A DNA stretch of 61,944 nucleotides, counting the filler, from an uncultured Methanosarcinales archaeon (lineage in GTDB: Archaea; Nanobdellota; Nanobdellia; Woesearchaeales; CAYVYK01): assembly GCA_964455675.1 (NCBI GenBank). It is 2 parts of 2 records of this genome, joined end to end, with 100 filler letters (N's around TTAATTAATTAA, not from the genome) between each part and the next. Parts side by side here need not be neighbours in the genome. Positions count along the whole stretch, not along the records: positions 1 to 31,157 come from CAYVYK010000018.1; 1 more part is not named here. One strand, 5' to 3'. The position numbers and the translations under genes are program-made. Positions 13,965 through 31,157 of this stretch are shown here, piece after piece; the stretch's first letter is position 1, and each line of letters starts with the position of its first letter. The notes below the pieces were generated by a model. It was not told the origin of the DNA, searched no databases, and saw nothing but the letters and a program-made list of their open reading frames with translations.

Positions 13965-15623
13965 ATGCGAGAAAAGATGATCACGCTCATCGGCATGATA
14001 GTCATCCTGTTCATCCTCTCAACATATGCGGCACACGCAGTGCAGGTAGTCACCGGATACGTCGCTAATCGTGACGACGGCCGCGCACAAGGAAGAACGG
14101 TCGTCATCTGGAAATCTGGAACAGATATCAAGTCGGACAATAAAACAGCAGTCGTCAGCTCATCAAATATCTACGCTATCAACTGCGGATCACCAGGAGG
14201 ATTCATAACACCTTGCGTCAATGGCGACAATATCAGCGCAAGAGTGGTTTTTAACGGCACGTTCTCGAGCAAGACCGAATGGGTCATCATCAACACGGGC
14301 GACGGGAGCCCCGCAACCGACGTCAGAAATCTCTCGCTCGCGATCGCGAGGCCGCCAAAGATCACGTTCCTCTATCCTGTGAACAACACCGTCGGACTCA
14401 TCGGGAACGACACCATCAATACTACCATCCAGAATAACTCTATCTACGAAGTCGACAAGGCGATATACCTCTTCAAGAATTCATCGGGGAACTATTCAGA
14501 GTATGGAACAGCAGGATCAAGCAACCTCTATCCCACAGGGACTAGCCCGCCGGTAAGCGGAAGATACAACTGGACGGATATCTACAACGCAAGTCTGCTA
14601 AACAACGGAACGTACACCCTTTGCGTTCGCACAAACAACAGTCTCCGGCAGTTCAACGTGAGCTGCATCAGGGTATTCATCACAAACCTCTCCGTCGACC
14701 TTGCAGTGTACGACACGGAACTCTCATACACCCCCTCAGCGGTGATCGAATTCCTCAACACAACCATCAACGCGACGGTCAGAAACCTTGGAAAATCTTC
14801 CATCAACGCAACCATACAATTCTGGTGGGCAAGCCACAAGAACAGGAACTACACAAACGGGACACTCATTCGTAGCATTGACCTCATCGTCCAAGGCCGC
14901 ACGAACCAGAGCGTAGTCTTCAACTGGACAGCACAGTACTTTGGCATGAACAGCCTCTATGTCGTTGCGGACCCACCGATCGCAACCTCAGGGAGCATCC
15001 CAGAGAATGATGAAAACAATAACGTTGGATATATCAACATCACATTACCGATCTGGCACACATTCGCTGGAAACGTCAGCGGAAGCCTTGTTCTCTCCGA
15101 CCTCGCAAATTACTCCCTCCTCACGTGGAACGTCACGAACAGCTCGTCACAGAATATCTACTTCACAAGCGCAGGACAAAGCATCAGCTTTGCCGACCTT
15201 CGAGCGCTGGGAAGAAACACGAGCGGCAATTATGAGTATAAACACTTCCTTTCCATCGACACGAACCTCAACGTCTCACATGTGAATGACTCAATCAACC
15301 TATCATATACCGCGAGCGGGCAGCCGAAAGCAACGACAAGCCTCTATGTCTTTGGAACGGAGATCACGAACGTACCCGTCATCAACTCCACAAACTCCAG
15401 CTCGTTTCTCACCGGAATCCTCTGGGATACGAGCGATGATGACGGCGACGGCGGCTACGATACCACGGACAAGGAGGATATCGTGTTTGTCACGACAACG
15501 TCTGAGAATATCCCTGGCATGTATGGCACGTATGACTTCGAAGTACGAGTGCCAGCTCCACTCCGCGATTACACATCATGGGGCGCAGACGACCCGGTCG
15601 CCATTTTCGTCGAACTCCAATAG
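13965..15623 (+). CDS. Secreted protein: Ig-like and CARDB-like domains plus a C-terminal divergent 'GNV...VEL' domain
   Basis: Signal peptide and CARDB motifs (DLAV...INATVRNLG...VVADPP...IPENDENNN). The C-terminal domain runs WHTFAGNVSGSLVLSD...YDFEVRVP...AIFVELQ-stop. Confidence 0.8.
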   Translation: MREKMITLIGMIVILFILSTYAAHAVQVVTGYVANRDDGRAQGRTVVIWKSGTDIKSDNKTAVVSSSNIYAINCGSPGGFITPCVNGDNISARVVFNGTFSSKTEWVIINTGDGSPATDVRNLSLAIARPPKITFLYPVNNTVGLIGNDTINTTIQNNSIYEVDKAIYLFKNSSGNYSEYGTAGSSNLYPTGTSPPVSGRYNWTDIYNASLLNNGTYTLCVRTNNSLRQFNVSCIRVFITNLSVDLAVYDTELSYTPSAVIEFLNTTINATVRNLGKSSINATIQFWWASHKNRNYTNGTLIRSIDLIVQGRTNQSVVFNWTAQYFGMNSLYVVADPPIATSGSIPENDENNNVGYINITLPIWHTFAGNVSGSLVLSDLANYSLLTWNVTNSSSQNIYFTSAGQSISFADLRALGRNTSGNYEYKHFLSIDTNLNVSHVNDSINLSYTASGQPKATTSLYVFGTEITNVPVINSTNSSSFLTGILWDTSDDDGDGGYDTTDKEDIVFVTTTSENIPGMYGTYDFEVRVPAPLRDYTSWGADDPVAIFVELQ

Positions 15624-15799
15624 TCACATATCGAAGCGAGTCTCTCGTATGGCTCATTATTCATGTGACTCTATTCATGTGCCCCCATTTCCCTCTCCGT
15701 TCGCCTCTCAATTTAGAAGGGAGGGCGGTAAGAAGTTACCATTTCACAATACTACTAAAAGTATATATACGGATTTTTTTTAATGAGTCAGTGGCGAAA

Positions 15800-16360
15800 A
15801 TGGGAGAAGCAGAAGTACCAGATGAACTGCCAGCGCTACCAGCAGCAGCGCCGGCACCAACAGCGGCAGCGCCGGTAGCGGCTCCTCCTCCAGCGCCGGT
15901 CGCGGCAGCGCCTCCAGCACTGCCGTCCCCGACAGTTGATCCAAGCCCACCCACAATTGCACCGCCTGAATTACCAAAAAATCTGGAATTACCCAAGTTC
16001 GAGCCGCATCTTCCGGGAACATACCCACCACATATCGACCAGAAATTATTCTTCTCACGACTTATCACTGACTTTCACAAAGAGAGCCCGATCAAGGGAG
16101 GAACAGATATCATAGCAGACCTTCAGAAGAACTGGCAGGATCAGAAACTCCAGAACAAACTCGATGAGATTGATACTGAGCTTGCGCAAAAGTCAAAACC
16201 ACTCCAGGAACTTGAGAAGGAATGGAGAATCCTCCAATTTGAGATCGACGGCAGGCAAGAGCGGCTGAAAATGGTCGAAGATGAGCTCCACAAGGGAGTC
16301 CGTGACATACAACTACTTCTCGAACGGCGGGAGAGCCTCTCGCGACTTCTTGGCCAATAG
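15800..16360 (+). CDS. Hypothetical cytoplasmic protein with Pro/Ala-rich N-terminus and coiled-coil C-terminus
   Basis: Start moved to ATG 15800, downstream of an AT-rich TATA-like stretch. PAAAPAP low-complexity region, then heptad-like LQ/LE/IE repeats. Confidence 0.7.
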   Translation: MGEAEVPDELPALPAAAPAPTAAAPVAAPPPAPVAAAPPALPSPTVDPSPPTIAPPELPKNLELPKFEPHLPGTYPPHIDQKLFFSRLITDFHKESPIKGGTDIIADLQKNWQDQKLQNKLDEIDTELAQKSKPLQELEKEWRILQFEIDGRQERLKMVEDELHKGVRDIQLLLERRESLSRLLGQ

Positions 16361-16490
16361 AATTCTCCGTACGCGTACGATGAACTAAAAAACCAAAGAA
16401 TTTAAATACTAGTATACGTAAGTGTATATTGGTTTGTAAAGTCATGTGCTTTGGTATATTAATATAGGATTATCACAACTGATGGTGCGA

Positions 16491-17357
16491 ATGATGAAGA
16501 CGGTGCGGTACATGTGGGCAATCATGATGGTTATGATCCTTCTCGGCGTCACAGCAGTATCCGCAGTTGACTCGACTTCACCAGAAGGGCCAACTCTCAG
16601 CACGATTAATACAACAAGGCGCAACCTCACAGGTTCACGCATTAGGACCGCGGTCGCGGGCAACGTGACCCAGATCACGCTCTCGGGCGCGTCAATTACG
16701 CAAACATGGCAAGGATACTACGGAAATGTCACCGGTCGCATACGCCTTGACAATGCGGCGAACGAAGCGATGTACAGCTGGACACTCCCGTATCCAAGCG
16801 GTGAAATATTCGCAAGCCAGGTGCAAGTCATCAACTGGACAAGCGACAATCTCCGATGCTGGGAACTTGACAGTACGAATAACTATGACGCAGATATCAC
16901 ACTTTATGAGTATGAGACAGGAAGCGTGGCCCCAAGCTTCCCAGGCCTGGGCCTCGGAGTTACGGACGTCGATGGAGTCGATGAGACATTCACGAACCAC
17001 ACGCCAGGAAGCACGAACGCAACAGGACACACCAGCTTCTATGTTGGAAATAGATACTTCAACGGAAGCATGACAGGCGGACCAGTCGCGTGCCCGCGAA
17101 CATGGCTCTACAACAGCAGCGGAACCGGAGGATTCTGGGGAACACACTATGAAGACACTGCATTCGAAGAAGTCCTCATTTATGGAAATCTCCACGGAAC
17201 TGCTGCATCACTACCTATTTATACATCAATCATCAGGCAGTACGGAGCTGCAGGTTTTGATGGGAAAACATGGAACTTTGAGATGATCGTCGCAGAAAAC
17301 GGACACAATGGTAACACTGCAACTACAAACTACTACTTTTATGTGGAGCTCGAGTAA
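16491..17357 (+). CDS. Secreted 'GNV...YYFYVEL' family protein, copy A (putative structural subunit)
   Basis: GGTG RBS before ATG 16491 and a Sec-type signal peptide ending AVSA. Motifs WQGYYGNVTG, GEIFAS, 2 Cys, GFDG..NFEMIV, YYFYVELE-stop. Confidence 0.85.
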   Translation: MMKTVRYMWAIMMVMILLGVTAVSAVDSTSPEGPTLSTINTTRRNLTGSRIRTAVAGNVTQITLSGASITQTWQGYYGNVTGRIRLDNAANEAMYSWTLPYPSGEIFASQVQVINWTSDNLRCWELDSTNNYDADITLYEYETGSVAPSFPGLGLGVTDVDGVDETFTNHTPGSTNATGHTSFYVGNRYFNGSMTGGPVACPRTWLYNSSGTGGFWGTHYEDTAFEEVLIYGNLHGTAASLPIYTSIIRQYGAAGFDGKTWNFEMIVAENGHNGNTATTNYYFYVELE

Positions 17358-17366
17358 GGTGGAACA

Positions 17367-18221
17367 ATGAAACATACACATATTATACAAAAGATCACCT
17401 CGCTCATCTTGATAGCAATCCTTGTTCTATCTACGATGTTATTTGTGGTGACTGCCGTCGATCCCGAGAAACCGGACAGAATTCAGAACTTATCCAACAG
17501 GACAGCTAACTATCCGATCGGATGGAAACTCAATAAAACACGAGGCTTCATCTACATATCGAAAATCACCCACGCGCAACCAACACTCAAATGGCTTGGC
17601 TACGTTGGAAACGTCACGGGTACAATCGCGCTCAAGGATAGCAGTTCGTACGCGCTCTTTGACTGGAGCACAAGCGTGGTTACAGGAGAAGTATACGCAA
17701 GCAAGGAAGCAAGCGCGCATGCGGGAGACATCTTTGGAGGAGGAATCCCCGACTGGGCAAACGTGATCTGCGCAAACCAGACCATGATCAACGACGAAAT
17801 GGGACTCTTCAACCACAGCATCACGGAAGGCGATCGGTACAACAACACGTTCCGCAAGGAGAACTTCACGCTGAAGACGTTCTATGCTGGAACAACACTC
17901 GTGAACGACACACTCGTCGCCCACCGCGTCAACGACAACTGCAGAGGACTCATCCTGAATGTGAACGGAACCCGAGGAACAGGAACAGCAGCAAGCAAGT
18001 GGCAGGAAGTCGTACTCACCGACAGGACAACAGAGGACGAGAGCAGCGATAGCGGCTATGGAAAAGCAATACAGTACGACATCATCTACGCAGCACTCCT
18101 CGAGAACCAAACCTACGGATACAACCGGCAAAAGGTTGATTTCCAGATGCTGCTACCCCAAAGCGGACGACAAGGAAATGTCAACAATGTCGCGTTCTAC
18201 TTCTACGTAGAACTGATCTAG
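17367..18221 (+). CDS. Secreted 'GNV...YYFYVEL' family protein, copy B
   Basis: GGTGG RBS and signal peptide. Motifs WLGYVGNVTG, GEVYAS, 2 Cys, DFQMLLP, FYFYVELI-stop. Confidence 0.85.
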   Translation: MKHTHIIQKITSLILIAILVLSTMLFVVTAVDPEKPDRIQNLSNRTANYPIGWKLNKTRGFIYISKITHAQPTLKWLGYVGNVTGTIALKDSSSYALFDWSTSVVTGEVYASKEASAHAGDIFGGGIPDWANVICANQTMINDEMGLFNHSITEGDRYNNTFRKENFTLKTFYAGTTLVNDTLVAHRVNDNCRGLILNVNGTRGTGTAASKWQEVVLTDRTTEDESSDSGYGKAIQYDIIYAALLENQTYGYNRQKVDFQMLLPQSGRQGNVNNVAFYFYVELI

Positions 18222-18234
18222 AATTGCTTAGAAT

Positions 18235-18266
18235 TCATTTTCATTTCTTTATCCTTTTTCTTATCC
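18235..18266 (+). terminator. T-rich archaeal-type terminator candidate
   Basis: Pyrimidine/T tracts directly after the stop at 18221. Confidence 0.4.
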
Positions 18267-18450
18267 ACTGCCGCTTGTGAATGCAAGGCAGTGATTATAC
18301 CCCGTATCCAGTTTTACGAAACCACGCTCTAGCAGTACGTGAGAAGTCTCAGAAAGGGTGATCCACTAGATCGGAACATTATACTACTTCTTACCAACGC
18401 ACCATGTAATCCCTGTTAGCACCTTGCGTAAATCATGCGCCAGCACATTA

Positions 18451-18513
18451 TACTTACATTACTATAACTTATTTAATAATGCGTTAATTTTATATATACT
18501 TGTACTTACATTA
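18451..18513 (+). promoter_or_regulatory. Promoter with TATA box flanked by two TACTTACATTA direct repeats
   Basis: TACTTACATTA at 18451-18461 and 18503-18513, TTTTATATATA at 18488-18498, ATG at 18528. The same layout recurs at 21616-21672. Confidence 0.75.
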
Positions 18514-18527
18514 CAATAAGTACCTTC

Positions 18528-19058
18528 ATGGTTCTTAACCCGAACAGTGGAGTTTTGACACGTTTACCTACCTTTAGCCCCAAACATCCAAAAGACCAAG
18601 CTATCAGACGCGTCCTCAAACTCGCGGCACGCGAAGGCATTCAAGCACGAGACCTTGCCAAATACCTTGCAGAACCACCAGCAGAACAGATCCTGCCCCT
18701 CACCATATTCCGGAATCGCCGACTCAGCCCACTTGAAACAACCGTGAAGTATCTGAAAGAGACGGGAATGAAAAACCGCGAGATCAGCACACATCTCTCG
18801 CGCAGCGACCAAACAGTCTGGTACACCTACAGAAACGCGAACCGAAAACACCCCAGCCTCCTCACTGTAGAAGAGGGTCCTGGAATACCCCTTCAAGAAT
18901 TGCAACGAGAGGACCTCAGTTTTCTTGAGACACTTGTTGTATGGCTCCAAAAACAAGGACTTCGCTACCGGGACATCGCAAATATTCTCGGCAGAAATGA
19001 ACGCACAATCTGGACACTTGCCATGCGCGCCAGGCGAAAGACTGGAGGTGCACCATGA
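18528..19058 (+). CDS. Tandem-HTH (sigma70 region 4-like) DNA-binding protein
   Basis: Two internal repeats LSxLETxVxYL..G...xEI...LxRxxxT[VI]W...RAxRK. ATGA overlap with 19055. Confidence 0.8.
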   Translation: MVLNPNSGVLTRLPTFSPKHPKDQAIRRVLKLAAREGIQARDLAKYLAEPPAEQILPLTIFRNRRLSPLETTVKYLKETGMKNREISTHLSRSDQTVWYTYRNANRKHPSLLTVEEGPGIPLQELQREDLSFLETLVVWLQKQGLRYRDIANILGRNERTIWTLAMRARRKTGGAP

Positions 19059-19768
19059 GGAAACACTCAATTATCCTCATACTGATGTTCCTCCTCCTCA
19101 CAGTCATGGCACTCGCAGCAGCACCAGAACCACGCTCGCCCACGAACTTCACGAATGAATCCGTCGAGATAGCAGTGCCAAGCTCAGCGCAGGAGTACAA
19201 TGTGAGCGGAGGAACGATCAGCACAATACAACTTACCGGAATCACGCAAAACCCGCACTGGAAAGCGTTCGTGGGTAATGTCACAGGATCCTACTCATTA
19301 TCAGACTCACAGAACAGAACAATCTATGACTGGACCCTTGCCACAATAACGGGAGAAGTCTACGCAACACGGCGCTCAACGCTCGTCAGTTGGGACGATG
19401 TGCGGTGCGCGAACTCGAGCAGCATCTATGATGAGGAACGGTTGATCAACTTCACGAACAGCAGTGTTGACCGCATCAATTACACATTCAGCACGGGAAC
19501 ACACCCAGCGTTCTACGTTGGAACCGTACCAATAGCGGCAAACACGTGCCCGCGCGTGTACACCTATGTCAACAGCGCGAGCGGCAGCACGAACTTCCCC
19601 GAGGTACTGCTCCACGATGAACAGTACCTCATTTATTCATCACTCGTGAACACCACGCAGCAGGGCTTTGACCAGAGCCACTACCACTTCCAGATGATCG
19701 TGCCAGACTATGGCGATGAAACCATTGACAACCAGATCGTATATTACTTCTATGTAGAACTCGTCTAG
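19055..19768 (+). CDS. Secreted 'GNV...YYFYVEL' family protein, copy C
   Basis: GGAGGTG RBS and signal peptide. Motifs WKAFVGNVTG, GEVYAT, 2 Cys, GFD..HFQMIVP, YYFYVELV-stop. Confidence 0.85.
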   Translation: MRKHSIILILMFLLLTVMALAAAPEPRSPTNFTNESVEIAVPSSAQEYNVSGGTISTIQLTGITQNPHWKAFVGNVTGSYSLSDSQNRTIYDWTLATITGEVYATRRSTLVSWDDVRCANSSSIYDEERLINFTNSSVDRINYTFSTGTHPAFYVGTVPIAANTCPRVYTYVNSASGSTNFPEVLLHDEQYLIYSSLVNTTQQGFDQSHYHFQMIVPDYGDETIDNQIVYYFYVELV

Positions 19769-19834
19769 GAGTGACCTTACGCATACCTTTGCGGAAAAGT
19801 TTAAATAGTATTCTTGGGCGCATGAACGAGTACG

Positions 19835-21529
19835 ATGAAACCGTGGGGGAAGGCAGCAATCGGAGTCCTTGCGCTTCTGGCGCTCATGCTAGCCGCAGCC
19901 CCAACAAACGCAGCCACCATCGTTGCAAATTCAGACCAATGGCAAAATGTCTATTCAGTCATGGTCTACGCAGCGCTCACTGGGCAGACAAGCAAGTTTC
20001 TCGTGAGCGACAGGCACGGCCCGCTTCTTATCAAAGAAATATCCAGAACCGCACCGGTTGAAATCTACAGCGCGGAAGAGGGAGCATACTTCTACGGATA
20101 CGGAGAATTCGCAAAATCTGAGGGGTATGAGGCAACTGAAGTAGTGACCGATGATTTCAATATGGAGCTCGCACGACTTTTACCATCGAATGTCACGAAC
20201 TTCATCATCATTGATGATGCATATGGATACAATGCCATCGCGGTCGGATCATACGCAGTCCTTAACCATAGCTATGTACTCTTCGCGAAGCGAGAGAACT
20301 TGAACGAAGTACGCGCATACCTTGAAGGCAGAAGCGTTGATCATATCCTTATCTATGGAAACATTGACCGAGAAGTATTTGACGCGCTTAAAGAGTATAA
20401 TCCGGATGTGATCAACGAGGGAGGAGACCGTTTTGCCAACAATGTTGAGCTCGTCAAAAGATACAAGGCAAGCATCGACAGCAGGCAGATCATCCTCACG
20501 AATGGAGAATTCATCGAGAACGACCTCGTCAACGGCGCATACCCAGTCCTCTTCATCGGCAACCAAGAAGTTCCGGAACAGGTGAAAGAGTACATCAAGA
20601 ACAGCAACATCGAAGTAGGAGTCCTCATCGGAAACGAACTCGTCAACACTGCGTCCATTATCAGGAGGCAGATCGGCATCAGCACGTTCGTCAAATTCGC
20701 CAGAGGCGCAAGGGATCCCCAAGGACCTGTCGCACAGATCGAAGGGCTTGACATCTTCTACATGCCCATTATCGACCTCAACCTCAAAATCAACAGGGTG
20801 AGATACAACCTCATCACCAAGCAAGTTGAAATCACATTCGAAAACAGAGTAGAGCAAGGAATCTACTTTAAAGGCACGTACACGCTGCGCGGAAGCGAGA
20901 ACAGCCAGACGTTTGGAGACATCACACCAATATTCATCGATGGACTCGACCAGAAAACGATCACGTATGATATCGATCCCGTCGCTGGCCAGCAAGACCT
21001 GACGTTGAAAGCATACGTCATCTATGGAGAATCAAAAAACTCCCTTGAGCGAGTCATCGATGAGACGTTCACCGTCGAACAAATAGAGTACCTTGATGAA
21101 ACACAGATATCCATCACCAAAGTGGTGTATGACAAGTCCAAGAAGAGATTCATGGTATACCTGCAGAATGTTGGGGAAAGGGACGCATACGCGAAAGGAG
21201 AGATCGTTGACTTCCAGACATTTGATGGACTCCAGACATATACTGCCGACAAAGCAGTGTTCATCCCTGCCGGAAAGAAGAAGACGAGCAACATCGCTAT
21301 CAGCGTCGTCGAAGAAGACCTTGCGGCAAACTCAAAGGTCCTCGCGCGAGCGTACTATGGAGAAAACGAAGACGTCCTCGCGAAAGTCGTCGAGGGCGAG
21401 TTTGACCTCATCATCAGAACTGCAAACATCGCCATGTATGTCCTACTCCTCATCATCATCCTACTCCTCATCCTCATCATCCTTGCAGCAAAACGAAGGA
21501 AGAAAAAGAAAGAAGAAGGAAGCAGCTGA
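19835..21529 (+). CDS. Membrane-anchored protein with cell-wall-binding repeat 2 (CWB2)-like N-terminal region and Ig-like C-terminal domains
   Basis: Signal peptide and alpha/beta repeats with GGDRFANN (compare CWB2 G.DR[YF]ET). C-terminal TM helix followed by KRRKKKK. Confidence 0.65.
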   Translation: MKPWGKAAIGVLALLALMLAAAPTNAATIVANSDQWQNVYSVMVYAALTGQTSKFLVSDRHGPLLIKEISRTAPVEIYSAEEGAYFYGYGEFAKSEGYEATEVVTDDFNMELARLLPSNVTNFIIIDDAYGYNAIAVGSYAVLNHSYVLFAKRENLNEVRAYLEGRSVDHILIYGNIDREVFDALKEYNPDVINEGGDRFANNVELVKRYKASIDSRQIILTNGEFIENDLVNGAYPVLFIGNQEVPEQVKEYIKNSNIEVGVLIGNELVNTASIIRRQIGISTFVKFARGARDPQGPVAQIEGLDIFYMPIIDLNLKINRVRYNLITKQVEITFENRVEQGIYFKGTYTLRGSENSQTFGDITPIFIDGLDQKTITYDIDPVAGQQDLTLKAYVIYGESKNSLERVIDETFTVEQIEYLDETQISITKVVYDKSKKRFMVYLQNVGERDAYAKGEIVDFQTFDGLQTYTADKAVFIPAGKKKTSNIAISVVEEDLAANSKVLARAYYGENEDVLAKVVEGEFDLIIRTANIAMYVLLLIIILLLILIILAAKRRKKKKEEGSS

Positions 21530-21615
21530 ATCTCTTTCTCTTGATTGCATTGATTGACTCTAGCTATATCTCTATTCTAAACGCCTCAACAAGGCAGGGG
21601 GCATGATTCTTCTTA

Positions 21616-21672
21616 TACTTACATTATATTCCTATGCTACATATTTATATACTCAGATTGATACTTACATTA
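21616..21672 (+). promoter_or_regulatory. Promoter with TATA box flanked by two TACTTACATTA direct repeats
   Basis: TACTTACATTA at 21616-21626 and 21662-21672, TTTATATA at 21644-21651, ATG at 21680. Confidence 0.75.
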
Positions 21673-21679
21673 TATCTCT

Positions 21680-22156
21680 ATGAATCCGCGGGTCCAGCAG
21701 CAGTTACGAGCGCTCGAAACAGAATTTCTCAAGCTTGAGCAGGCAGGAATAGCACCTCGAAACGTGTTTTTACGCATAGAGCGAATGATGAAAGCGCGGA
21801 GCGTTCCCATATCCATCTTCCACGAAGAACGACTCGCGCCACTCGAAGCGCTCGTAAAATATCTCCGCGAGGAATGCCAACTATCATATGAAGATATCGC
21901 GCACGTTCTTCGCAGAAATCCGGGGCCCATTGGAGTTACGTACCGCACAGCACGACGGAAAATGCCGGGGCGGCTTGCACTTTCAGGCATGAGGATGGAA
22001 CTCGCCATATTTTCGACCGGACTCTCCATCCTCGAAAGCCTCGCAACACATCTTCACGATTCCGGCATGAGCCTGCATGAGGTAGCACAAGTACTTTCGC
22101 GAAACGACCGCACGATCTGGACTGTTGTTTCCCGCGCTCGGAGGAAGCGATCATGA
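21680..22156 (+). CDS. Tandem-HTH (sigma70 region 4-like) DNA-binding protein, paralog of 18528..19058
   Basis: LAPLEALVKYL...YEDIAHVLRRN and LSILESLATHL...LHEVAQVLSRNDRTIWT. ATGA overlap with 22153. Confidence 0.8.
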   Translation: MNPRVQQQLRALETEFLKLEQAGIAPRNVFLRIERMMKARSVPISIFHEERLAPLEALVKYLREECQLSYEDIAHVLRRNPGPIGVTYRTARRKMPGRLALSGMRMELAIFSTGLSILESLATHLHDSGMSLHEVAQVLSRNDRTIWTVVSRARRKRS

Positions 22157-22977
22157 GGAGGCAACCATTCCTCGGACTGTGCATCATGATGGCCATCCTT
22201 ATTATTACTATTATTACGAGCGCCGACGCAGTTACCTACAGCTACAGCGTACCCGACGGGCCAAACATCACCACATCGAACACGAGCAGACGAACGCTGG
22301 ACGCGAGCGCGCAATACCCCGCATACGCCGGAAACGTCACGATGCTCACCATTTCAGGAATCAGTATCAGCCAGACATGGCAAGGATACTACGGAAACGT
22401 CACCGGCATGATCAACCTTGAAAACGGAGCAAACGAAGTGTTCTACTCATGGGATCTCGTGTACCCAACGGGCGAAGTGTACGCATCAGAAGCAGCGTCC
22501 ATCAACTGGACGGCAGAGAACCTTGATTGCTACCAATTTGATATGGGACGAGAGAGCGTCACGTACCTCTCGCTCCCCGAATATGAGGGATGGGTTGAAG
22601 CACAACCGGCCTATGATGGGTTTGAACTTACCGAAACGAGTCCTGATGGAATCGACGAAACGTTCACGAACGCGACAAACGTCGGTCACACGAGCTTTTA
22701 CGCCGGAGTCAAGTTCTTCAACGGAAGCACGAGTGGAGGACACGTCGCATGCCCAAGCACTCGCACGTACAACGCAAGCGGAGTTGCCGGAACTTTCGAG
22801 GAAGCGATTATCTACGCAACAAGCAACCAAAGGCCGGTGTACGCGGCGATCATCCTCCCCTACGGCGGAAAAGGATTTGATGGACGCACGTGGAACTTCC
22901 AAATGCTCGTACCTGAGAAAGGAAGGGGAGGGGATACGAGCACAACGCCATACTACTTCTACATGGAGCTTGAGTAG
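22153..22977 (+). CDS. Secreted 'GNV...YYFYVEL' family protein, copy D (closest to copy A)
   Basis: Signal peptide. Motifs QTWQGYYGNVTG, GEVYAS, GHTSFY.G..FNGS..GG.VACP, GFDGRTWNFQMLVP, YYFYMELE-stop. Confidence 0.85.
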   Translation: MRRQPFLGLCIMMAILIITIITSADAVTYSYSVPDGPNITTSNTSRRTLDASAQYPAYAGNVTMLTISGISISQTWQGYYGNVTGMINLENGANEVFYSWDLVYPTGEVYASEAASINWTAENLDCYQFDMGRESVTYLSLPEYEGWVEAQPAYDGFELTETSPDGIDETFTNATNVGHTSFYAGVKFFNGSTSGGHVACPSTRTYNASGVAGTFEEAIIYATSNQRPVYAAIILPYGGKGFDGRTWNFQMLVPEKGRGGDTSTTPYYFYMELE

Positions 22978-23091: not shown

Positions 23092-23514
23092 TTAGCCAAG
23101 ATACTTCGTCAGTTTCTTTTCCGTTGAAGGCCGGCGCAGTTCCTCGTGCCATGAACGCCCAATCTTACCAGCCTCTTCCATAAAGCGATCTGATAGCTTA
23201 TAGGTACGCTTGTACAAATCATAGTAAATCATACCCATGCTCTTCATGGGCGTCAGGATACGATCATAGAACTGGCGCTTATTATAGGAAAGCTTGACGG
23301 TCTTCCCCTTGTATTCCGGCTCATCAATCTCCGTGATTATTTTTCCCTCATGGAGAGCGGTTGCAAAGTTGGACATCTCAGATTTGGTGATTTCACCATT
23401 CTTTTCCTTCATCGCTTGGAAGAGAAGCTTGGCAACAATCTTTTGCTGCTTAGTTGCAAAAATAACCTCAAACACATCCGCAGGCATATTAAATATGTCA
23501 AACAAAATTACCAT
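23092..23514 (-). CDS. Hypothetical protein, possibly winged-helix DNA-binding
   Basis: 140 aa ORF with GGGGGTG RBS and an upstream TATA-like TTTATA. C-terminal LTPMKSMGMIYYDLYKRTYKLS resembles a wHTH recognition helix plus wing. Confidence 0.7.
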   Translation of the reverse strand: MVILFDIFNMPADVFEVIFATKQQKIVAKLLFQAMKEKNGEITKSEMSNFATALHEGKIITEIDEPEYKGKTVKLSYNKRQFYDRILTPMKSMGMIYYDLYKRTYKLSDRFMEEAGKIGRSWHEELRRPSTEKKLTKYLG

Positions 23515-23677
23515 TACTTACACCCCCAATTGTTGCAAACCACAATTGGTATATAAATATTAACAAAGGCAGAGGCACGTATCAATTAGGCAGTATTATA
23601 CTCTCGGTTATACTTAGGTGGGAGGAGCACTATTCTTATGGGATATGATGAATATAGTATCATAAATGGATACCATC

Positions 23678-23852
23678 TGTAATACTTATGTAATACAATA
23701 AGCATATATACCTCGTGTTTCTTGGTGAGCAGCATGTGTAGTTTTTTTCTGTATACGTATAGTGTAATATACTAATGTCATACATCTTACACTTGTCATA
23801 CAATCATGAATTCTTACCAAATAAAAACATTTATATACATCTAGTGTAATAC
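23678..23852 (+). promoter_or_regulatory. Array of TGT(A/C)ATA(C/T) boxes around a TATA box, candidate RHH operator
   Basis: TGTAATAC at 23678, 23689 and 23845, TGTAATAT at 23763, TGTCATAC at 23776 and 23794. TTTATATA at 23830-23837. Confidence 0.55.
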
Positions 23853-23890
23853 ACACAGCTTACACAAAGATTACATTTCCCCGTGATACC

Positions 23891-24040
23891 ATGGACGACC
23901 ACATCCAAGTTCTGAATGTACGCCTTCCAACAGATGTCGTAGCATGGATTGACAAACTCGTGAAACAAGGCGTCTACTCCAACAGGTCTGAAGCACTGAG
24001 GGACTTCATCCGTGATTACGTCCGGAAGCGACAAGCATGA
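23891..24040 (+). CDS. Small ribbon-helix-helix (CopG/Arc/MetJ) regulator, 49 aa, absent from the ORF track
   Basis: Manual translation MDDHIQVLNVRLPTDVVAWIDKLVKQGVYSNRSEALRDFIRDYVRKRQA. Has the RHH beta-strand and NRSEALR motif. ATGA overlap with 24037. Confidence 0.85.
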   Translation: MDDHIQVLNVRLPTDVVAWIDKLVKQGVYSNRSEALRDFIRDYVRKRQA

Positions 24041-24342
24041 ATACACTCGTCAGCATACGCATACCAAAAAAACTGGTTGAGGAACTTCGCGAAGCAGCGG
24101 AAAAAGACCATTACCTTGATATCAGCGAAGCAATCCGGAGCGTCGTACGCAAGAAATGGATGGAATACAAAGACCCACAAGCGTACCAATTAGAACAGCT
24201 TAAAAAAGAGATCAAGGAAAGAGTCGTCAAGAAAGTCGAAGAACACTCAAACGCACAAAAACAGGATGAGCTCATCCAGGAACTCCGCGAACTACGCGAC
24301 AGCATCCTTAAGAGCATTGACAAAGGTGGAGATCATGCGTAA
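24037..24342 (+). CDS. Ribbon-helix-helix regulator with C-terminal coiled coil
   Basis: LVSIRIPKKLVEEL...YLDISEAIRSVVR followed by heptad repeats. Confidence 0.8.
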   Translation: MNTLVSIRIPKKLVEELREAAEKDHYLDISEAIRSVVRKKWMEYKDPQAYQLEQLKKEIKERVVKKVEEHSNAQKQDELIQELRELRDSILKSIDKGGDHA

Positions 24343-27300
24343 ACTCCACATTATTCTCACATTCCTCGTGGTATTCTGCTTGTGCATGACAGTTCTGTAC
24401 GCTGAGGACCCGGATACTCCGGAAGAACCTGAAGCACCACCAGAACCAACACCAGAACCAACACCCGAAACAACACCAGAAGAAACACCAGAACCAACAG
24501 CAGAACCGACACCAGAACCAACACCCGAAACAACACCAGAAGAAACACCAGAACCAACAGCAGAACCGACACCAGAACCAACACCGTGTGTTGACTGCAG
24601 TCCAGCTAACTCTACAGAACCAACCAATACGACAACGAATACGACGGATCCTGATGGAAATCAGACCGAAGAAGCACCAAGCGACAAACCGGCAAGCACA
24701 CCGGAACCTACAACCGATCCAACGGAGAGAACAAACACAACACTCTTCCCACAGATCAACCAAAATCTCGTGCTCCTAAATGAACTTATTGGAGGAGCAG
24801 TGTTTGGCATCTACACGGACAAACATGCGTATCTACCCACGGAAGACGTGTGGGTCACAATCATCGCTCCCGACCACACCCCTGTTGAACTCATGCTCGC
24901 ATACAACGGGTACAAACAGTACATCAAGATACCAGAAACAAATACGTACCCGATGAACTATCTGCTGCCCCTCCCTCGCAATATCGAAGAAGGGTATTAT
25001 ATCCTTGCCGCAGCAATCCTCCACAACAATAATCCGCTCAGAACACAAACACTATTCCAAATTACATATGATACCCTCCCTGAAAAGACTGTTCCCACAA
25101 GCAAGCCAGGCATCCTAATACTCAGCGAGGAAGTAGAAAACACAGAAACATACACCCCGCCGCAGGAACCAGAGTACTTCAGGAAGGAAAACCTGGAAAG
25201 CACAGAAGCGCAGAAACAAACTGCACCAGAAACCCGAACTGAGGTCGAACTACCAAGAGATACCGGCGGAAGGGCAGTTTCAGGACCTATTGAAGTTGGA
25301 AAACCAGTAAAGTGGCGCAAGACTGTCACGGTCGAGCGACTCGGTGCTGAAGGACAGGAGATTGACCTCCTCGTCCATGTACCAACAAGCGCCCGAAATG
25401 TCGTCACGAAAAATCCCACCGCACGAGCATTCAGCGCGTCCATGGAAGAAGAGGAGATACAGATCAAGGATGAATTTGGAACGAGAAGGGAACAGACATA
25501 CACCATTGAATTTGAGACACCAGGCCCCACTATACATGAAGATGAAACGTTCTACCAAGGAGACCAGCTCAAGAAGAGAGTCACAATCAGCAGCCCAAGT
25601 GACATGGAAGGAGATTATGAGTACCGTGATGTCATCAGCAGAACAGTCGTCGATGAATCACCAAGAGAGCATGTCAGGATCATCTGGTACGAAAACGGCG
25701 ATCTTTCAAACGGACGAGACATCACGGACGAGCCAACATTTGATGTCAAGCTCATGGATACAAACGACAACGGACAGATCGACCTTGTCTCATGGATCAC
25801 ACCACACCTGTCCACGCAAGTATTTGATGTCATCATTGGAATGGACAGCGTCACTGGTGATGACGTAGCTCTCGACGTCAACCTACTCTCCCCAGGTAAT
25901 GGAGAGCACATCAATGAGAGCCCGATAGCAATCCACTACAGGGTTGTGCACAACTCGAGTACAACCGTGAGTTGCTCGGTCTTTGTCGACGAGAGCTTAA
26001 TCGACAACGTGCAGAATGCAACAGGCCACCATGACGCAAACACAACGCTTCTCCTAGAAGAAGGGATACATACGTGGCAAGTGGCATGCACTGATAATCT
26101 TGGCCACAATGCAACTAGTCCGACAAACGCATTTGTGATTGACCTTGCATCACCAAGCATCGAGTTGATCACGCGAAACAACACGCTCACGCTCACAGGA
26201 AGCATCACACTCAACTGGTCCGTCCAAGACAACCTCGCACTCGAGACGGACTGCGAGTTCTATCTCGACGGCCTACTCAACAGAAGCTACATGAGCGTTC
26301 ATTATGATACCGTCCAAACCACATCATTTTCGGGAATCGCAAACGGCACGCACTCATGGAATCTAGAATGCACGGACGAAGCAGGAAACATACAGACAAG
26401 CGAGACATACACATTCATCTCCTACACCGAGCAGGAATTCAACGTACTCCTCGACCAGCCAACATATCGCATCGGTGAGAAAGGATATTTCATCATCACA
26501 GGGCCACACGGAGCGGATGTCATTGTACTCATCAGGCATGCGGAGAGCGGAGAATCAAGCATCTGGAACTACTACGATGCATCATTCCCAATCATAACTG
26601 CAATGAATTTCACCACGCGACAAGGCGAATACACACTCCGGGCAGTGCTCAACCATCTTGGCGCAGTCAAAGAGATTAACCAGACAATCACGGTTGAGAA
26701 CAACATGCATGTAAATATCAGGACGACGGCCGATACGGTCGAGAAAGATCAGTCAATCTCATTCACCGCAGAGGATGCTACAGGAGGAATAGGAGAAAAA
26801 ACATACACCTGGGACTTTAAGGACGACACAAATACGGCAACGGGAACGAGCGTCTCCCACACATTCGCCAAGAAAGGCACATTCAACGTGGACCTCACCA
26901 TGCAGGACAAATATGGAAATGCTAAAAAATTCATCAAACAAATCGTCGTCACGAACAAACAAGATGTGTGGGTCCTTGTGACCGACGAACAGGATCACCC
27001 GATCAAAGATGCAGACGTCTACATCGATGACAACAAGCATGTCACAAACTCGAACGGCTACATCAAGGATATTCTCTTCCCAGGAGAGTACACCCTCCTC
27101 ATCCAGCACCCACTCTACCAAAACAGATACGATGAAGTCGAAGTTACAGGGAATGTCACGCTCACGTACAAGCTCAAGATCAAGAATATTGTAAATGCCA
27201 CAAACTTAACAGTCATCAACCTAAGCAGTGCTATCATTCCAGCCCCAACACCCTCCACAAAAAATAACGAACTGCAACCAACCACGATCCAAACTGATGG

Positions 27301-28624
27301 ATTTGACTCAGCACAGCTTGACGAACTCAAGGAAGCGGTAGAAAAGGCAAAAGACAACCTTGCGAGATATTCGGGACTAGCGGATGAGATGGCACTCGCT
27401 CTCAAACTTCCAGAGAAAAATAAAGAGTTTGAGGCGCAGATAGGCCGCATCGAACGCGATCTTGCGAGTATTAACAGGATAACAAATTCAGAAGAGCGAA
27501 GCACGCGCATCACGGACATCATCGGACTCATGAACACCATTCGAAACGAACTCGTCATAGACATCGAGGCCGGCGGAAAGTACCAATTCGCCCAAGAGCT
27601 TGGAGACGATGATATTGCCGGCATCATAAAGTCATACCTTCAGGGCATTTCTCGAAACCTATCCAAACAAGCTCTCAAAGAGTACCAGCAAGAAGTCAAG
27701 GCTAGCAACAGCAAGACAATCATATCGACAAAAGCCATCAGCGGGGAGATCACCAAGATGGAAGGCAAGGAGGAACTCACCGTGATTGAACAGACCATTG
27801 ATTCCCCATACAAGATCACCAAAGAAAAAATCATCACAGCAGCACCGGACGTGCCAATCAGTTTCAAGGACGACGTCACAACAGATGGCAAGGTCCTTGC
27901 TGGAGTTAACATCATTGAACATACGTCGGAGGAGGACACCGTGAGATTCACCATTGCAGACATTCTCTCAGAAGAACAAGCCAAACAAGTATTCACCATC
28001 ATCATGCCTACACCAAAAGCGAGCACATCAAAAGAGGACAATGGAATCTTCGGAGTGACAGGATTTGCGGTATTTTCCAGCATCGCAGGAGTCGATGATC
28101 CTATCCTTGTCATCGAAATCGTGCTCATTATTCTCCTCATCCTTGTGTACCTTACGTTCCAGTTCAACATCGCGAGCAAGATACTTAAGAGCGGACTAGG
28201 CGGGAAGTTGTTCTCAAAACTGCAAGTCTTTGGCAATAAGAACATGAAACGTTTTGCAGAAATCCAGGAAGACTTCGCAGATATGATGGCAAACCAAAAA
28301 ATTGCGGAAGCGAAAAAGCTCGCAGATGAAGCACGAGCCCTCGCCTCAACAATAAAGGGAAAGAATCAGGAAACCGCGCAAGCGATCGTTACCAAGCTCG
28401 ATGAGGACCTCAGAGTGCGCGAAATCAAGGACAAGATCAATGAGGCGCTCATATTCCTCAAGCTTGACCATCGTGACAAAGCAGCAGCCGCATACACCGA
28501 GATTGCGGCAGACTACAAGGCGCTTCCAAAGAACCTCAAAGCACGCATCGGCAAGGAGTGCACGTATCTCTACGAAAAACTGCTCTCAGACAATCCATTC
28601 CCTAAGATTAAAACAGACGAGTAA
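24335..28624 (+). CDS. Large single-pass surface protein (PE/PT linker, Ig-like, PKD and carboxypeptidase-regulatory-like domains, coiled coil, TM, cytoplasmic helical tail)
   Basis: GGTGGAG RBS before ATG 24335 and a signal peptide. PKD motif YTWDF.D...G.SVSHTF...G.F.V.LT. TM segment ILVIEIVLIILLILVYLTF. Confidence 0.8.
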   Translation: MRKLHIILTFLVVFCLCMTVLYAEDPDTPEEPEAPPEPTPEPTPETTPEETPEPTAEPTPEPTPETTPEETPEPTAEPTPEPTPCVDCSPANSTEPTNTTTNTTDPDGNQTEEAPSDKPASTPEPTTDPTERTNTTLFPQINQNLVLLNELIGGAVFGIYTDKHAYLPTEDVWVTIIAPDHTPVELMLAYNGYKQYIKIPETNTYPMNYLLPLPRNIEEGYYILAAAILHNNNPLRTQTLFQITYDTLPEKTVPTSKPGILILSEEVENTETYTPPQEPEYFRKENLESTEAQKQTAPETRTEVELPRDTGGRAVSGPIEVGKPVKWRKTVTVERLGAEGQEIDLLVHVPTSARNVVTKNPTARAFSASMEEEEIQIKDEFGTRREQTYTIEFETPGPTIHEDETFYQGDQLKKRVTISSPSDMEGDYEYRDVISRTVVDESPREHVRIIWYENGDLSNGRDITDEPTFDVKLMDTNDNGQIDLVSWITPHLSTQVFDVIIGMDSVTGDDVALDVNLLSPGNGEHINESPIAIHYRVVHNSSTTVSCSVFVDESLIDNVQNATGHHDANTTLLLEEGIHTWQVACTDNLGHNATSPTNAFVIDLASPSIELITRNNTLTLTGSITLNWSVQDNLALETDCEFYLDGLLNRSYMSVHYDTVQTTSFSGIANGTHSWNLECTDEAGNIQTSETYTFISYTEQEFNVLLDQPTYRIGEKGYFIITGPHGADVIVLIRHAESGESSIWNYYDASFPIITAMNFTTRQGEYTLRAVLNHLGAVKEINQTITVENNMHVNIRTTADTVEKDQSISFTAEDATGGIGEKTYTWDFKDDTNTATGTSVSHTFAKKGTFNVDLTMQDKYGNAKKFIKQIVVTNKQDVWVLVTDEQDHPIKDADVYIDDNKHVTNSNGYIKDILFPGEYTLLIQHPLYQNRYDEVEVTGNVTLTYKLKIKNIVNATNLTVINLSSAIIPAPTPSTKNNELQPTTIQTDGFDSAQLDELKEAVEKAKDNLARYSGLADEMALALKLPEKNKEFEAQIGRIERDLASINRITNSEERSTRITDIIGLMNTIRNELVIDIEAGGKYQFAQELGDDDIAGIIKSYLQGISRNLSKQALKEYQQEVKASNSKTIISTKAISGEITKMEGKEELTVIEQTIDSPYKITKEKIITAAPDVPISFKDDVTTDGKVLAGVNIIEHTSEEDTVRFTIADILSEEQAKQVFTIIMPTPKASTSKEDNGIFGVTGFAVFSSIAGVDDPILVIEIVLIILLILVYLTFQFNIASKILKSGLGGKLFSKLQVFGNKNMKRFAEIQEDFADMMANQKIAEAKKLADEARALASTIKGKNQETAQAIVTKLDEDLRVREIKDKINEALIFLKLDHRDKAAAAYTEIAADYKALPKNLKARIGKECTYLYEKLLSDNPFPKIKTDE
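24450..24585 (+). repeat. 60-bp coding tandem repeat encoding a (TPEPTPETTPEETPEPTAEP)n linker
   Basis: Exact 60-nt periodicity, about 2.3 copies. Confidence 0.9.
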
Positions 28625-28630
28625 CAACCC

Positions 28631-31157
28631 ATGCGACGAAAAACGTGGCTGGACAGCAAGGTACTTTTTGCACTCAGCATTCTCATCCTCGTAGCAAGCA
28701 GCCTCTTTGGACTCTATAGCACCAGGACATACCTAGGAAAAATAGGATACATGCTGAATGGAACAGCAGGATACATCTATGAGATAGCCATCATCGTCGG
28801 AAGGGATGTCGACGCCTGGGCAGGTTTCTACGGAAACGTATTCAGAATGTCCGACGATGAGACGCTCAATTTCAACAAGACAATCTCCGGCGGCGAGATC
28901 AAAAGATACGACTTCACTCCAAACTGCATCGGCGTCACCGGGTATGACATGTATGCAAGCCTCGTCAATTGGGATCAAATCGTGCTTAATCCGAACACAA
29001 CAACAAGCGCGACCATGAATGATATCATTGATTTTATGGGATTTGTTGAGGATATCGAGTCAACAGAAAGCCCACGCGACTTCTATACAACAAATTATAC
29101 CGTAAACTACGGCGGGGTGCCCATCAACGCCCTCGCCGGATACACTTACCAGGCCGGAGTACCTGGCGATGACTTCGTCAATTTCGTACTCAAGGACGAA
29201 GCAGGCCACCTCCTATTTGGGTATGATGTTCGGTACGGCTATGTTGGATTTGACAGCCAAGTCCATAATTTCCAGCTCATGCTCCCCATGCCCGCGGGAC
29301 AGACAAACGTCACATGGTATTTTTTCCCTGATCCGGTTTCTGATAATCTTTCTCTGTGCCCCCTCATCTTTGTCGCACCCATCGTAGGATATGTCACGGA
29401 TAAAACTACAAGTGCTGGAGTCTCAAATGCCACGGTCAACATAACCGGGCTTGATGTTGGATTCAACACGCTCACCGATAGCAGGGGATACTACGAATTC
29501 CCGGAGATGGAATTAGACACACAGTACTTCATGATCACGTCAGCGAATGGATACCACTCAAAATATGAAGTCGTCAGTCATGTTTCCATGACAGTCATCA
29601 ATTACTCCGCAAATGGATCGGCGAACAATGGAACGTACCACAATATCTCACTCCTCCCTGACTTTGTTGGAGTCAATCTGAACGCATCGGTCCAGGGATA
29701 TGTCAGGGATAATAGTACCGGCTTACCTGTCGAAGGAGCTCTCGTCGCAGGAGCGGGGGGATCTGACTACACGGCAGATACTGGACACTATGGATTTGCC
29801 ACCAGATCTGGAGCAGACCAGCTATTCATCGGGTATCGTGATGGATATGAAATAGCCGTCTTCAACCTGACATTCGTGACATATGAGCGCAAGAATCACA
29901 GCTTCAATCTCACGCCCGCGGGAGCGCTCGCTGACATCAATGCAACATATTATGGAATCGTCACTGATGACTCTAGCGGAGAGATCATTCCAAACGCCAC
30001 AATCGTCATAGGAGCGCACGTCACAAACTCCACCGTAAATGGAACCTATAATCTCACCGTCGCAGCTGCGGAGTACAGGTACATCGTTGCGCTCAAGGAC
30101 CTCTATGACCCATACATCGGAGAATTAAAACGCAACTTGACAAACGCCACGAACGGAACGTACATCCAGTGGGGAATCGAGGAAGGAGAGAGCATCGGAT
30201 TCAACATCAGCATGCATAAAACAGCAGTAGAAAATCCCGCCACAGACACCGGATCAGGACCGGGCCTTGGGCCTGGAAGCGGGCCTGGAAGCGGAGAACC
30301 CGCCGAACAGGAGAAAAAAGCAGAGGAGTTACCTGCACAAATCAACGTTTATGTTAGCATCGACCAGATCAAGAAACGCGTCAACCAGGACTCATTCGTT
30401 GAGGAATCCTTAAGCATCTACAATTTTGGCGATCAAGTCCTCCAGGTCGAGCTCAGCGTGGAAGGAGCGGTCGCGCCACTCGTACAAATCGACAAACACA
30501 AGATAAGCCTCCTTCCCAACTCAAGCCAGGATATCAATATCAAGATGTTCGGACTTCTCGAGCCAAACATCTACTACGGCCAGCTGCTCATCAAAGGAGA
30601 CTTTAACGCAGTCATCCCTATCGAACTGACCATCGTCAAGGAAAGCAAGATCCCGGTCCATAGCCTTATAGTCAAGATCGAATCACTCAAGAATAGCATC
30701 TTCCGCGGGAGCGAATTCAGATACAAAGTTGACCTCATCAACCTACTGTCTGACAAGAACTATCAAGTTTACATGAATTTTACACTTACGAACGCTCTCA
30801 CCGGTGAAGTGCTGCCTCTCGGAGGCCAAAATGCCAGTATCCAGACGTTCCGCAGCATCCTTCGTAAAGGAGGAGTGCCAAAGGACATCACGCTTGGAGA
30901 CTATGTCCTAAGCGTTGAAGCGCACTACCTTGGACAGAGCTCTGTCGCAAATGCGCTCCTCACAATTACGGATCCGTTCTACAAGTACAACCTCTTCGGA
31001 ATTATTCCCATCTGGCTTTTATCGCTATTCATGAGCCTTTTCGTCATGGGATTTTTCCTTTTCGTCATCATCAAACGCAACATGGAAAAGAAGAAGCGCT
31101 TCCATGCTAAAATAGACTATGGACAAATGCCGCAGAAAGGAGAACGCAGCATCCTCG
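28631..31157 (+). CDS. Membrane-anchored protein: N-terminal 'GNV' domain, 3 carboxypeptidase-regulatory-like domains, Ig-like domains, TM; 3' truncated by the gap
   Basis: AGYIYEI...WAGFYGNV...GFDSQVHNFQLMLP...TWYFFPDP, then three 'G.V.D..TG..V.[NG]A.V' modules and a TM near 30990-31070. The ORF runs into Ns. Confidence 0.8.

Follow-up and report, generated by a model that had tools for sequence, protein, structure and literature searches.

How uncultivated archaea of the Woesearchaeota type, within the DPANN group, hold onto hosts or surfaces is largely unknown. A groundwater study describes, in the passages bearing on this point, type IV pilus components as missing in DPANN genomes (bioRxiv 10.1101/2020.05.14.094862). 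The question arises again in a stretch of 61,944 nucleotides (the window) from a genome recorded as an uncultured Methanosarcinales archaeon (GenBank assembly GCA_964455675.1), where one domain, marked by a GNV motif and the closing signature YYFYVEL, recurs in six proteins of a single gene cluster. An earlier note, made from the sequence alone, had read these proteins as major and minor subunits that polymerize by beta-strand donation into a surface filament, with a lattice as the alternative; as a whole, that interpretation is partly supported by the analysis described here. Proteins are designated below by the first nucleotide of their genes.

Our preferred reading, to which we assign a probability of about 0.5, is that the 'GNV...YYFYVEL' domain is a self-associating docking or assembly module of surface adhesins in Woesearchaeota-type archaea. 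The domain probably holds a cell-surface attachment structure together. By sequence, the module comes in four forms: the free proteins alpha and beta, the C-terminal delta domain of adhesin-like proteins, and an N-terminal copy on stalk proteins. Self-association is the simplest explanation because the same domain is found in free pairs, at giant C-termini, at stalk N-termini, and in a possible wall-binding fusion. In the proposed mechanism, the domain would bind other copies of itself and join surface proteins into one attachment structure. Alpha and beta would associate with each other, and the delta domain would dock secreted adhesins onto alpha/beta units. The N-terminal copy of the stalk, possibly together with the 19835-type protein, would tie the assembly to the membrane, and small helix-turn-helix proteins may switch alternative alpha/beta sets on or off. 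The alpha/beta units might form a long repeating fiber or a short connector.

One domain in six copies

The window joins two contigs; the spacer at 31158-31258 consists of N runs that flank the stop-codon stretch 'ttaattaattaa'. The cluster sits in the second half of contig 1 (1-31157), up to its end. Contig 1 stops at 31157, which leaves the 28631 protein without its C-terminal end, and adjacency to the cluster is not implied for DNA past 31258. A family hidden Markov model (HMM; A2) of 60 members, comprising four window proteins and 56 database relatives, was searched against the whole window, in which six-frame translation gives 779 open reading frames (ORFs) no shorter than 40 aa. Exactly six ORFs matched, with no others at E ≤ 10, and all six lie on the plus strand where the earlier note had placed them.

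Four of these ORFs encode small proteins: 16491-17357 (288 aa, or 291 aa from an alternative ATG; E 1.5e-95; ending in YYFYVELE), 17367-18221 (284 aa; E 2.6e-60), which lies 10 nt downstream of the former gene, 19055-19768 (237 aa; E 6.8e-71), and 22153-22977 (274 aa; E 3.9e-89; ending in YYFYMELE). The two remaining copies are weak HMM matches within larger proteins, one C-terminal in 13965 (E 2.9e-7, residues ~362-468 aligned) and one N-terminal in 28631 (E 2e-4, residues 44-234). For 13965, hhalign of 34 orthologous C-terminal domains against the family profile gave 98.2% and E 5.4e-14 over 173 columns. For 28631, phmmer with the first 260 aa returned many alpha and beta members, down to E 2.1e-8. 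The proposal of one domain in six copies is thus borne out, even at identities to 16491 of 52% (22153), 27, 31, 22, and 22% for the other five proteins. The strict motif order also claimed for the four small proteins holds as a loose ordered pattern and fails as a set of literal regular expressions: some spacings differ, so that each small protein has 4 to 6 of the 9 patterns in order and the divergent copies have 0 and 2.

The domain was said to belong to no named family, and the library searches agree. For the four small proteins, Pfam and NCBIfam gave nothing at E ≤ 0.1 and PHROGs nothing at E ≤ 0.01 (a search that covered these four and 13965). In Pfam and NCBIfam, 13965 and 28631 are matched only outside the family domain, and the family profile has 0 matches among PDB sequences at E ≤ 10. 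The ESM Atlas returned only unnamed Woesearchaeota clusters for the family. No account of it was found by literature word searches, which accession-only or supplement mentions would escape.

An AlphaFold model of the 19055 protein, built from a 60-row alignment, reached a mean predicted local distance difference test (pLDDT) of 85.9 and a predicted template modeling score (pTM) of 0.80. It shows a signal helix, a structured non-regular stretch to residue 68, and then 11 strands with two short helices. A Foldseek search with this model came back empty at E ≤ 0.001, both for the PDB as of April 2026 (best E 0.25, template modeling score about 0.15) and for BFVD (best 0.017). Family and predicted fold therefore appear new to the libraries searched, whereas their kind, a secreted surface-assembly module, is already known.

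The model bears on two other readings of the domain. In the first, the domain would be an enzyme or would bind a foreign target (a host glycan or envelope, for example) instead of assembling with itself; alpha and beta would act as secreted effectors or lectins, and the fused proteins would carry an identical binding domain. In its favor, the predicted fold is beta-rich, with acidic and aromatic positions conserved along with one cysteine pair; the non-significant top PDB neighbors in Foldseek (E 0.25-0.9) include jelly-roll lectins and capsid proteins; and episymbionts need host-binding proteins. The searches gave no match to an enzyme family or fold, however, and the placement of the domain on other proteins (see below) lowers this reading further, so that we judge it quite unlikely.

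The second is polymerization by beta-strand donation, which the model does not bear out. The monomer is predicted confidently and looks complete, and its N-terminal extension, with a pLDDT of 77-83 in blocks 21-70 and without a beta-strand, is structured and not a free low-confidence arm.

The family is large. Of 1741 candidates from a word-indexed search, 495 proteins matched at E ≤ 1e-3; the 120 matches listed are all annotated 'hypothetical protein', and the organisms named there are Woesearchaeota or Nanoarchaeota, in line with the DPANN-type organism supposed earlier. An exhaustive profile search of 1.84 billion cluster representatives (50% identity) gave 1287 matches at E ≤ 1e-3, 907 at E ≤ 1e-10, and 454 at E ≤ 1e-30. 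Among species-representative genomes, a relative was encoded in 434 of 555 pattern-matched stretches, from which 79 loci were kept. All 79 are archaeal, with NCBI phylum labels of Woesearchaeota (41), none assigned (15), Methanobacteriota (11), Nanobdellota (10), and Iainarchaeota (2).

The 11 loci labeled Methanobacteriota (e.g., L005, L010, L012, L018, and L020) are records titled 'uncultured Methanosarcinales archaeon'. Such records hold the same Woesearchaeota-type cassette, including the neighbor clusters c1 and c4 described below, and the taxonomic label looks doubtful.

Free pairs, giants and stalks

Together with contig 1, the 79 loci make up 80 sources. By HMM, 14 of these carry one copy of the domain, 36 two, 9 three, 9 four, 4 five, 7 six, and 1 seven. 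Of 218 matches, 12 were set aside as fragments or weak fused copies, and the 206 members spanning at least 200 profile positions were placed in a FastTree phylogeny. The tree divides into two clades with a support of 100. Alpha (n = 90) includes 16491 and 22153 and usually ends in YYFYVELE; beta (n = 116) includes 17367 and 19055. By these sequences, alpha and beta are ancient paralog clades. A beta gene follows on the same strand within 400 nt of the alpha gene for 67 of the 90 alphas. For the 'major and minor subunits' of the earlier proposal, two paralog clades of equal conservation, encoded 1:1, are the better description.

Regulators are interleaved with these genes, as had been noted before. 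Cluster c1 comprises double helix-turn-helix proteins, with 32 members in 31 of the 80 sources, all on the same strand as a family gene and abutting it. The window holds two, both on the plus strand: 18528-19058 (Pfam Sigma70_r4_2, E 9.7e-9, and HTH_23) and 21680-22156 (Sigma70_r4_2, E 8.4e-7). Each of the two genes runs into the start of the next family gene with a 4-nt overlap (19055-19058 and 22153-22156), which suggests co-transcription and perhaps translational coupling of 'regulator' and structural gene. An ArsR-type regulator (c3; HTH_5, E 1e-8) is found in 25 of the 80 sources, and the 19835-type protein (c4) in 20. A recurrent gene order is alpha-beta, c1-beta, c3-alpha(-beta), and c4. 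In the window, the order reads alpha, beta, c1, beta, c4, c1, alpha, which is closest to L007, L005, L018, and L020.

The simplest loci consist of a giant protein, alpha, beta, and then gamma, a secreted, cysteine- and sequon-rich protein of ~305-335 aa that follows alpha-beta in most loci (68 ORF matches; e.g., L001:10709-11707 and L026:10692-11657). Gamma has no Pfam or PDB match. It was considered as a further form of the family domain and ruled out, as hhalign gave 19.9% over 6 columns.

Such gene arrangements would also suit an S-layer-like lattice, in which alpha and beta tile the surface, 19835 and 28631 serve as stalks, and delta-ended giants are decorations. Two co-encoded components accompanied by membrane-anchored stalk proteins agree with this reading, as do the high sequon density and, in simple loci, the conserved core-genome position of the pair near putative ribosomal-protein-like genes (clusters c5-c7). 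The presence of several alternative pairs, each with its own regulator, speaks against it. Subunits of ~25 kDa are also small for archaeal S-layers, and alpha and beta have no match to the S-layer models in Pfam and NCBIfam. The only SlaB model match is the 1452-aa neighbor 24266, at 25 bits versus a cut-off of 700. In addition, a metatranscriptome study lists, in the results drawn on here, separately annotated 'S-layer protein genes' among the top-expressed Woesearchaeota genes (PMC11606122), which suggests that another protein forms the S-layer and counts mildly against a lattice. Taken together, we consider a lattice very unlikely.

Returning to the proposed docking module, one of its placements is at the end of adhesin-like proteins. 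The first gene of the cluster, 13965-15623 (plus strand), encodes a 552-aa protein with a Sec-type N-terminus, a CARDB domain (aa 245-354; Pfam E 1.7e-5), and the C-terminal delta domain (~aa 351-552, nt ~15015-15620; delta HMM E 5.8e-79). Its last 213 aa matched 50 ORFs in the loci, 28 of them longer than 1000 aa and the longest 2993 aa, with many of the giant ORFs cut by the locus edge. Two short fragments aside, the 41 best of the 50 matches aligned to within 15 residues of the C-terminus and end in F/Y-Y-x-E-[ILV]-x; one small fragment and ordinary family members of the beta type account for the 9 weakest. In simple loci, the giant delta gene lies directly upstream of alpha-beta(-gamma). 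Delta aligns to the family core alone, from the W-x-G-Y-x-G-N-V motif to the C-terminus, and does not cover the N-terminal extension of alpha and beta. The same placement is seen among the best 150 cluster representatives, where 21 exceed 340 aa and the domain lies within 4 residues of the protein end in all 21.

The opposite placement occurs in the stalk proteins, where the domain comes first and is followed by CarboxypepD_reg-like domains and a C-terminal membrane helix. In the window this is 28631-31157 (plus strand), with the family domain at aa 44-234 (nt ~28760-29332) and the membrane helix at aa 787-805; the same architecture is found in L009, L030, and L049. The supposition of subunits with fused and anchored partners is strengthened by these data, given that the domain ends giants and heads membrane-anchored stalks in many genomes.

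Some long relatives show a further elaboration. A Nup98-like S59 autopeptidase (PF04096) was matched in 10 of the 21 long relatives at E ≤ 1e-3, in one of them above the curated cut-off (31.0 vs 28.4 bits). The motif H-F-S-x-Y precedes the family domain in 9 of the 21 (P0172, P0190, P0203, P0214, P0219, P0229, P0257, P0262, and P0263). These nine relatives have a membrane-anchored N-terminus, the S59-like region, a domain of ~100 aa, and the C-terminal family domain, a layout suggesting that the fragment with the family domain is released by autoproteolysis or stays tethered non-covalently. No S59 form was seen in real genes of the window or loci, and the H-F-S motif is absent from the window ORFs.

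A separate feature, shared by many large surface proteins of these organisms, is the motif T-G-[FY], which directly follows the N-terminal hydrophobic helix. It occurs in P0146, P0161, P0190, P0203, P0206, P0214, P0229, P0242, and P0257, and likewise in the stalk-type proteins L009:622-4143, L030:2871-6266, and L049:3217-6582. The motif may be a lineage-specific processing or anchoring signal.

The 19835 protein (19835-21529, plus strand; 564 aa) is the member of cluster c4 in the window and has a signal peptide, beta-alpha repeats, beta-sandwich domains, a C-terminal membrane helix, and a lysine-rich tail. In its AlphaFold model (pLDDT 83, pTM 0.73), aa 28-280 form three beta-alpha repeats, followed by a low-confidence linker, by beta-sandwich domains (aa 317-528), and by a long C-terminal helix (aa 532-562); a hydrophobic segment spans aa 523-541. 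Searches bearing on the label 'CWB2-like' that it had been given earlier gave mixed results. The protein has no PF04122 (CW_binding_2) match at E ≤ 0.1, and a profile of 17 orthologs found no CWB2 chain in the PDB (best E 0.68, azurin). The three best named clusters in the ESM Atlas are CWB2 at 0.79-0.80, which serves as a lead only. In Foldseek, the best 50 matches are tandem beta-sandwich proteins (transglutaminases, RbmA) without CWB2, with the Ig-like half dominating. A single record, P0140, combines an N-terminal region of the 19835 type (54% identity) with a family domain of the alpha type; the record may be cut, as the match ends 20 positions before the profile C-terminus.

The small proteins look extracellular by sequence. 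The secreted appearance first ascribed to them agrees with inspection of the alpha and beta N-termini, which are Sec-type, with a charged start, a hydrophobic stretch, a small-x-small motif, and a conserved P-x-G. A class III signal peptide, as in type IV pilins and archaellins, was not seen in these N-termini by the same inspection. N-x-S/T sequons number 8-11 per small protein versus 2.7-4.1 in shuffles. Complex prediction was carried out for mature 16491 (alpha, 89-row alignment) and mature 17367 (beta, 114-row alignment). The complex received the verdict 'weak support', with a score of 0.57 vs 0.06 for the best of 3 controls, contact agreement of at least 49% between runs, and a partner pLDDT of at least 66. 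Of 157 solved complexes, 116 passed the mark for this score, as did 2 of 215 mismatched pairs; passes at scores of up to 0.60 came from only 18 of the 157 solved complexes and from both of the passing mismatches. An association of alpha and beta is plausible on this basis.

These observations also bear on the reading of foreign-target binding or enzymatic activity. The extreme C-terminal position on large proteins, the 1:1 pairing, and the N-terminal stalk copy fit docking better, and the alpha-beta score, weak as its verdict is, lies far above the controls.

A true filament is the reading closest to the earlier proposal. Alpha and beta would polymerize head to tail by strand donation, from either the N-terminal extension or the YYFYVEL strand, with a delta-tipped adhesin at the far end, a 28631-type stalk at the base, and neither ATPase nor chaperone. 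Several features point this way. The domain architecture shows the polarity that such a fiber would have: in the adhesin the core domain alone forms the C-terminus, in the membrane-anchored stalk the domain is N-terminal, and the free subunits add an N-terminal extension that is conserved and alternates in hydrophobic residues (A-x-A-G-N-V-T-x-L-x-I). Archaeal filaments that are Sec- or Tat-secreted, ATPase-independent, and strand-donating exist according to the source texts drawn on here, and the alpha-beta prediction gives the reading weak support. Type IV pilus machinery was not found in the window: the Pfam matches of its 36 scanned ORFs include no type IV assembly ATPase, platform protein, or prepilin peptidase, and the stated lack of a type IV pilus ATPase, prepilin peptidase, TadC, SipW, and sortase stands among these ORFs. 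In the loci, the only ATPase cluster seen is DUF87/HerA-type, in 9 loci at a median distance of 5.3 kb. Against a filament stand the complete monomer model and the structured, strand-free N-terminal extension, which does not resemble a floppy donor arm, together with the absence of a fold match to any solved pilin, thread, bundling-pilus, or cannula subunit in the PDB to April 2026. We regard a filament of this type as unlikely. The orientation of the domain in the fused proteins, which would put the adhesin at the distal end and the stalk at the proximal one as in chaperone-usher pili, fits a fiber and equally a short connector complex.

Several points weigh against the docking module that we favor. 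Because similarity to a beta protein guided the choice of loci, beta is over-sampled and the copy counts are biased. The confident, apparently complete monomer model, C-terminal strand and N-terminal extension included, demands no partner. The alpha-beta verdict is weak, and no interface was reported. Gamma, although present in most other loci, has no match in the window at E ≤ 10, and the cassette is therefore not uniform. Finally, the giant delta-proteins carry a single N-terminal hydrophobic segment; if this were an uncleaved anchor, delta would be the far end and not the docking end.

Genes around the cluster

Upstream, positions 2-13919 (plus strand) provide an adhesin-like context by Pfam, comprising a 2892-aa LamG/beta-helix protein (5'-open), a 1588-aa PKD protein that ends in a C-terminal membrane helix by its hydrophobic segments, and a 161-aa protein. 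The two giants at 2-13437 were examined as carriers of a C-terminal family domain and ruled out, with no match to the family or delta HMM. Between 13965 and the first alpha gene lies a proline-rich and coiled-coil protein without a signal peptide (15800-16360, plus strand; ORF listed from 15578, likely start near 15800). No family match was found for it, and homologs in the same place occur in L005 and L007 only.

Downstream of the last alpha gene, a conserved 140-aa protein without a family match is encoded on the minus strand at 23095-23514. Its homologs in 7 loci are 55-70% identical and always near family clusters, a conservation far above that of its neighbors. It is followed by 24266-28624 (plus strand), a 1452-aa surface protein with a signal peptide, a Pro/Thr/Glu-rich linker, and Big_13, PKD, and CarboxypepD_reg-like domains (Pfam), followed by a membrane helix (aa 1272-1290) and then a coiled-coil tail. 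This protein lacks the family domain, and full-length homologs lie downstream of family genes in L007, L018, and L020.

Contig 2 carries archaeal housekeeping genes for an ELP3-like radical SAM protein, adenylosuccinate synthetase, IMP dehydrogenase, ATP-dependent DNA ligase, and FtsZ, as well as one tRNA-Arg. A further calcium-binding-repeat surface protein is encoded at 31732-35655 (1307 aa, 15 thrombospondin type 3 repeats, E 4.4e-70). On the minus strand, four successive ORFs at 49381-55711 (261, 603, 512, and 730 aa) have no Pfam match at E ≤ 0.001 and negligible NCBIfam matches. An archaeal helicase ORF at 46519-48213, also on the minus strand, shows Helicase_C and archaeal helicase domain 4 without an N-terminal DEAD/ResIII match, and the gene may be truncated, split, or mis-started.

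Comparison with known surface systems

By analogy, the system appears to work most like adhesin-tipped pili or surface-protein docking modules, while no test run here assigns it to a known family. The likeness to chaperone-usher pili (type 1 and P pili), with two-domain tip adhesins such as FimH, is one of layout: the adhesin has a C-terminal assembly domain without the N-terminal extension, the free subunits have the extension, and paralogous subunits are encoded together with the adhesin. Unlike in those pili, there is no sequence or fold similarity (no fimbrial Pfam match at E ≤ 0.1, no Foldseek match at E ≤ 0.001), no chaperone or usher appears among the scanned window ORFs, and the monomer model is not visibly incomplete. 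CooC_C falls below its cut-off (23.6 vs 29 bits) in the stalk part of 28631, outside the family domain. The present organism, moreover, is an archaeon without an outer membrane.

A second group for comparison comprises the Sulfolobus threads, the TasA-like bundling pili of Pyrobaculum, the Pyrodictium cannulae, and the Tat-dependent bundling pili of haloarchaea. As far as the sources drawn on here describe them, these are secreted, glycosylated, beta-rich, and self-assembling outside the cell without type IV machinery. The present subunits resemble such ATPase-independent filaments in being putatively secreted, beta-rich, and sequon-rich, with assembly here a proposal. Unlike them, the family forms an alpha/beta pair with fused giant and stalk forms. 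It also has no PDB sequence (E ≤ 10) or Foldseek (E ≤ 0.001) match, the known filament subunits being presumed present in the PDB copy searched. TasA and bundling pilins (peptidase M73-like) specifically gave no Pfam, NCBIfam, PDB sequence, or fold match, and no signal peptidase is found among the scanned window ORFs.

A conceptual parallel in another ultra-small episymbiont group is offered by the Pam pili of Candidate Phyla Radiation (CPR) bacteria, compared here by description only. In the sections of that work drawn on here, PamA and PamB are two divergent, formerly unannotated pilin paralogs of an ultra-small episymbiont that fall outside the known classes of pili and have a proposed role in host contact (PMC13278184). 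The same sections describe them as exclusive to CPR, with Ig-like folds, donor-strand exchange by cryo-EM, and putative chaperones in the operon (PMC13278184).

Cohesin-dockerin, SLH, and CWB2 modules share with the family domain its position at the very end of diverse large extracellular proteins, as well as, in the docking reading, the non-covalent attachment of these proteins to a partner on the cell. Whereas these bind another partner domain or a wall polymer, the partner proposed here is the same domain in free alpha and beta, and no homology to the family domain was found for any of the three in Pfam or NCBIfam. SlaA and SlaB of Sulfolobales likewise form a two-component surface assembly with a membrane-anchored stalk protein, an arrangement that in the present case is read from the genes. 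Unlike SlaA/SlaB, the family shows no homology to these proteins, far smaller subunits, and multiple paralog sets.

For the biology of Woesearchaeota-type archaea, the main outcome is that a large unnamed family is now defined, with a confident predicted fold without a solved counterpart and a clear genomic grammar of pairs, giants, and stalks. Mature alpha and beta are small, expressible targets for self-assembly tests, and the domain provides an annotation handle on the adhesins of these organisms. More speculatively, and with low confidence, the system could represent a new archaeal fiber class with a shaft of repeating alpha/beta heterodimers, a stalk anchor and a giant adhesin tip joined through the same domain, and neither type IV machinery nor chaperone, in which alternative sets under their own helix-turn-helix regulators would act as variable attachment organelles in an episymbiotic way of life. 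If the family does form fibers, it would add a further class of non-type-IV archaeal filament.

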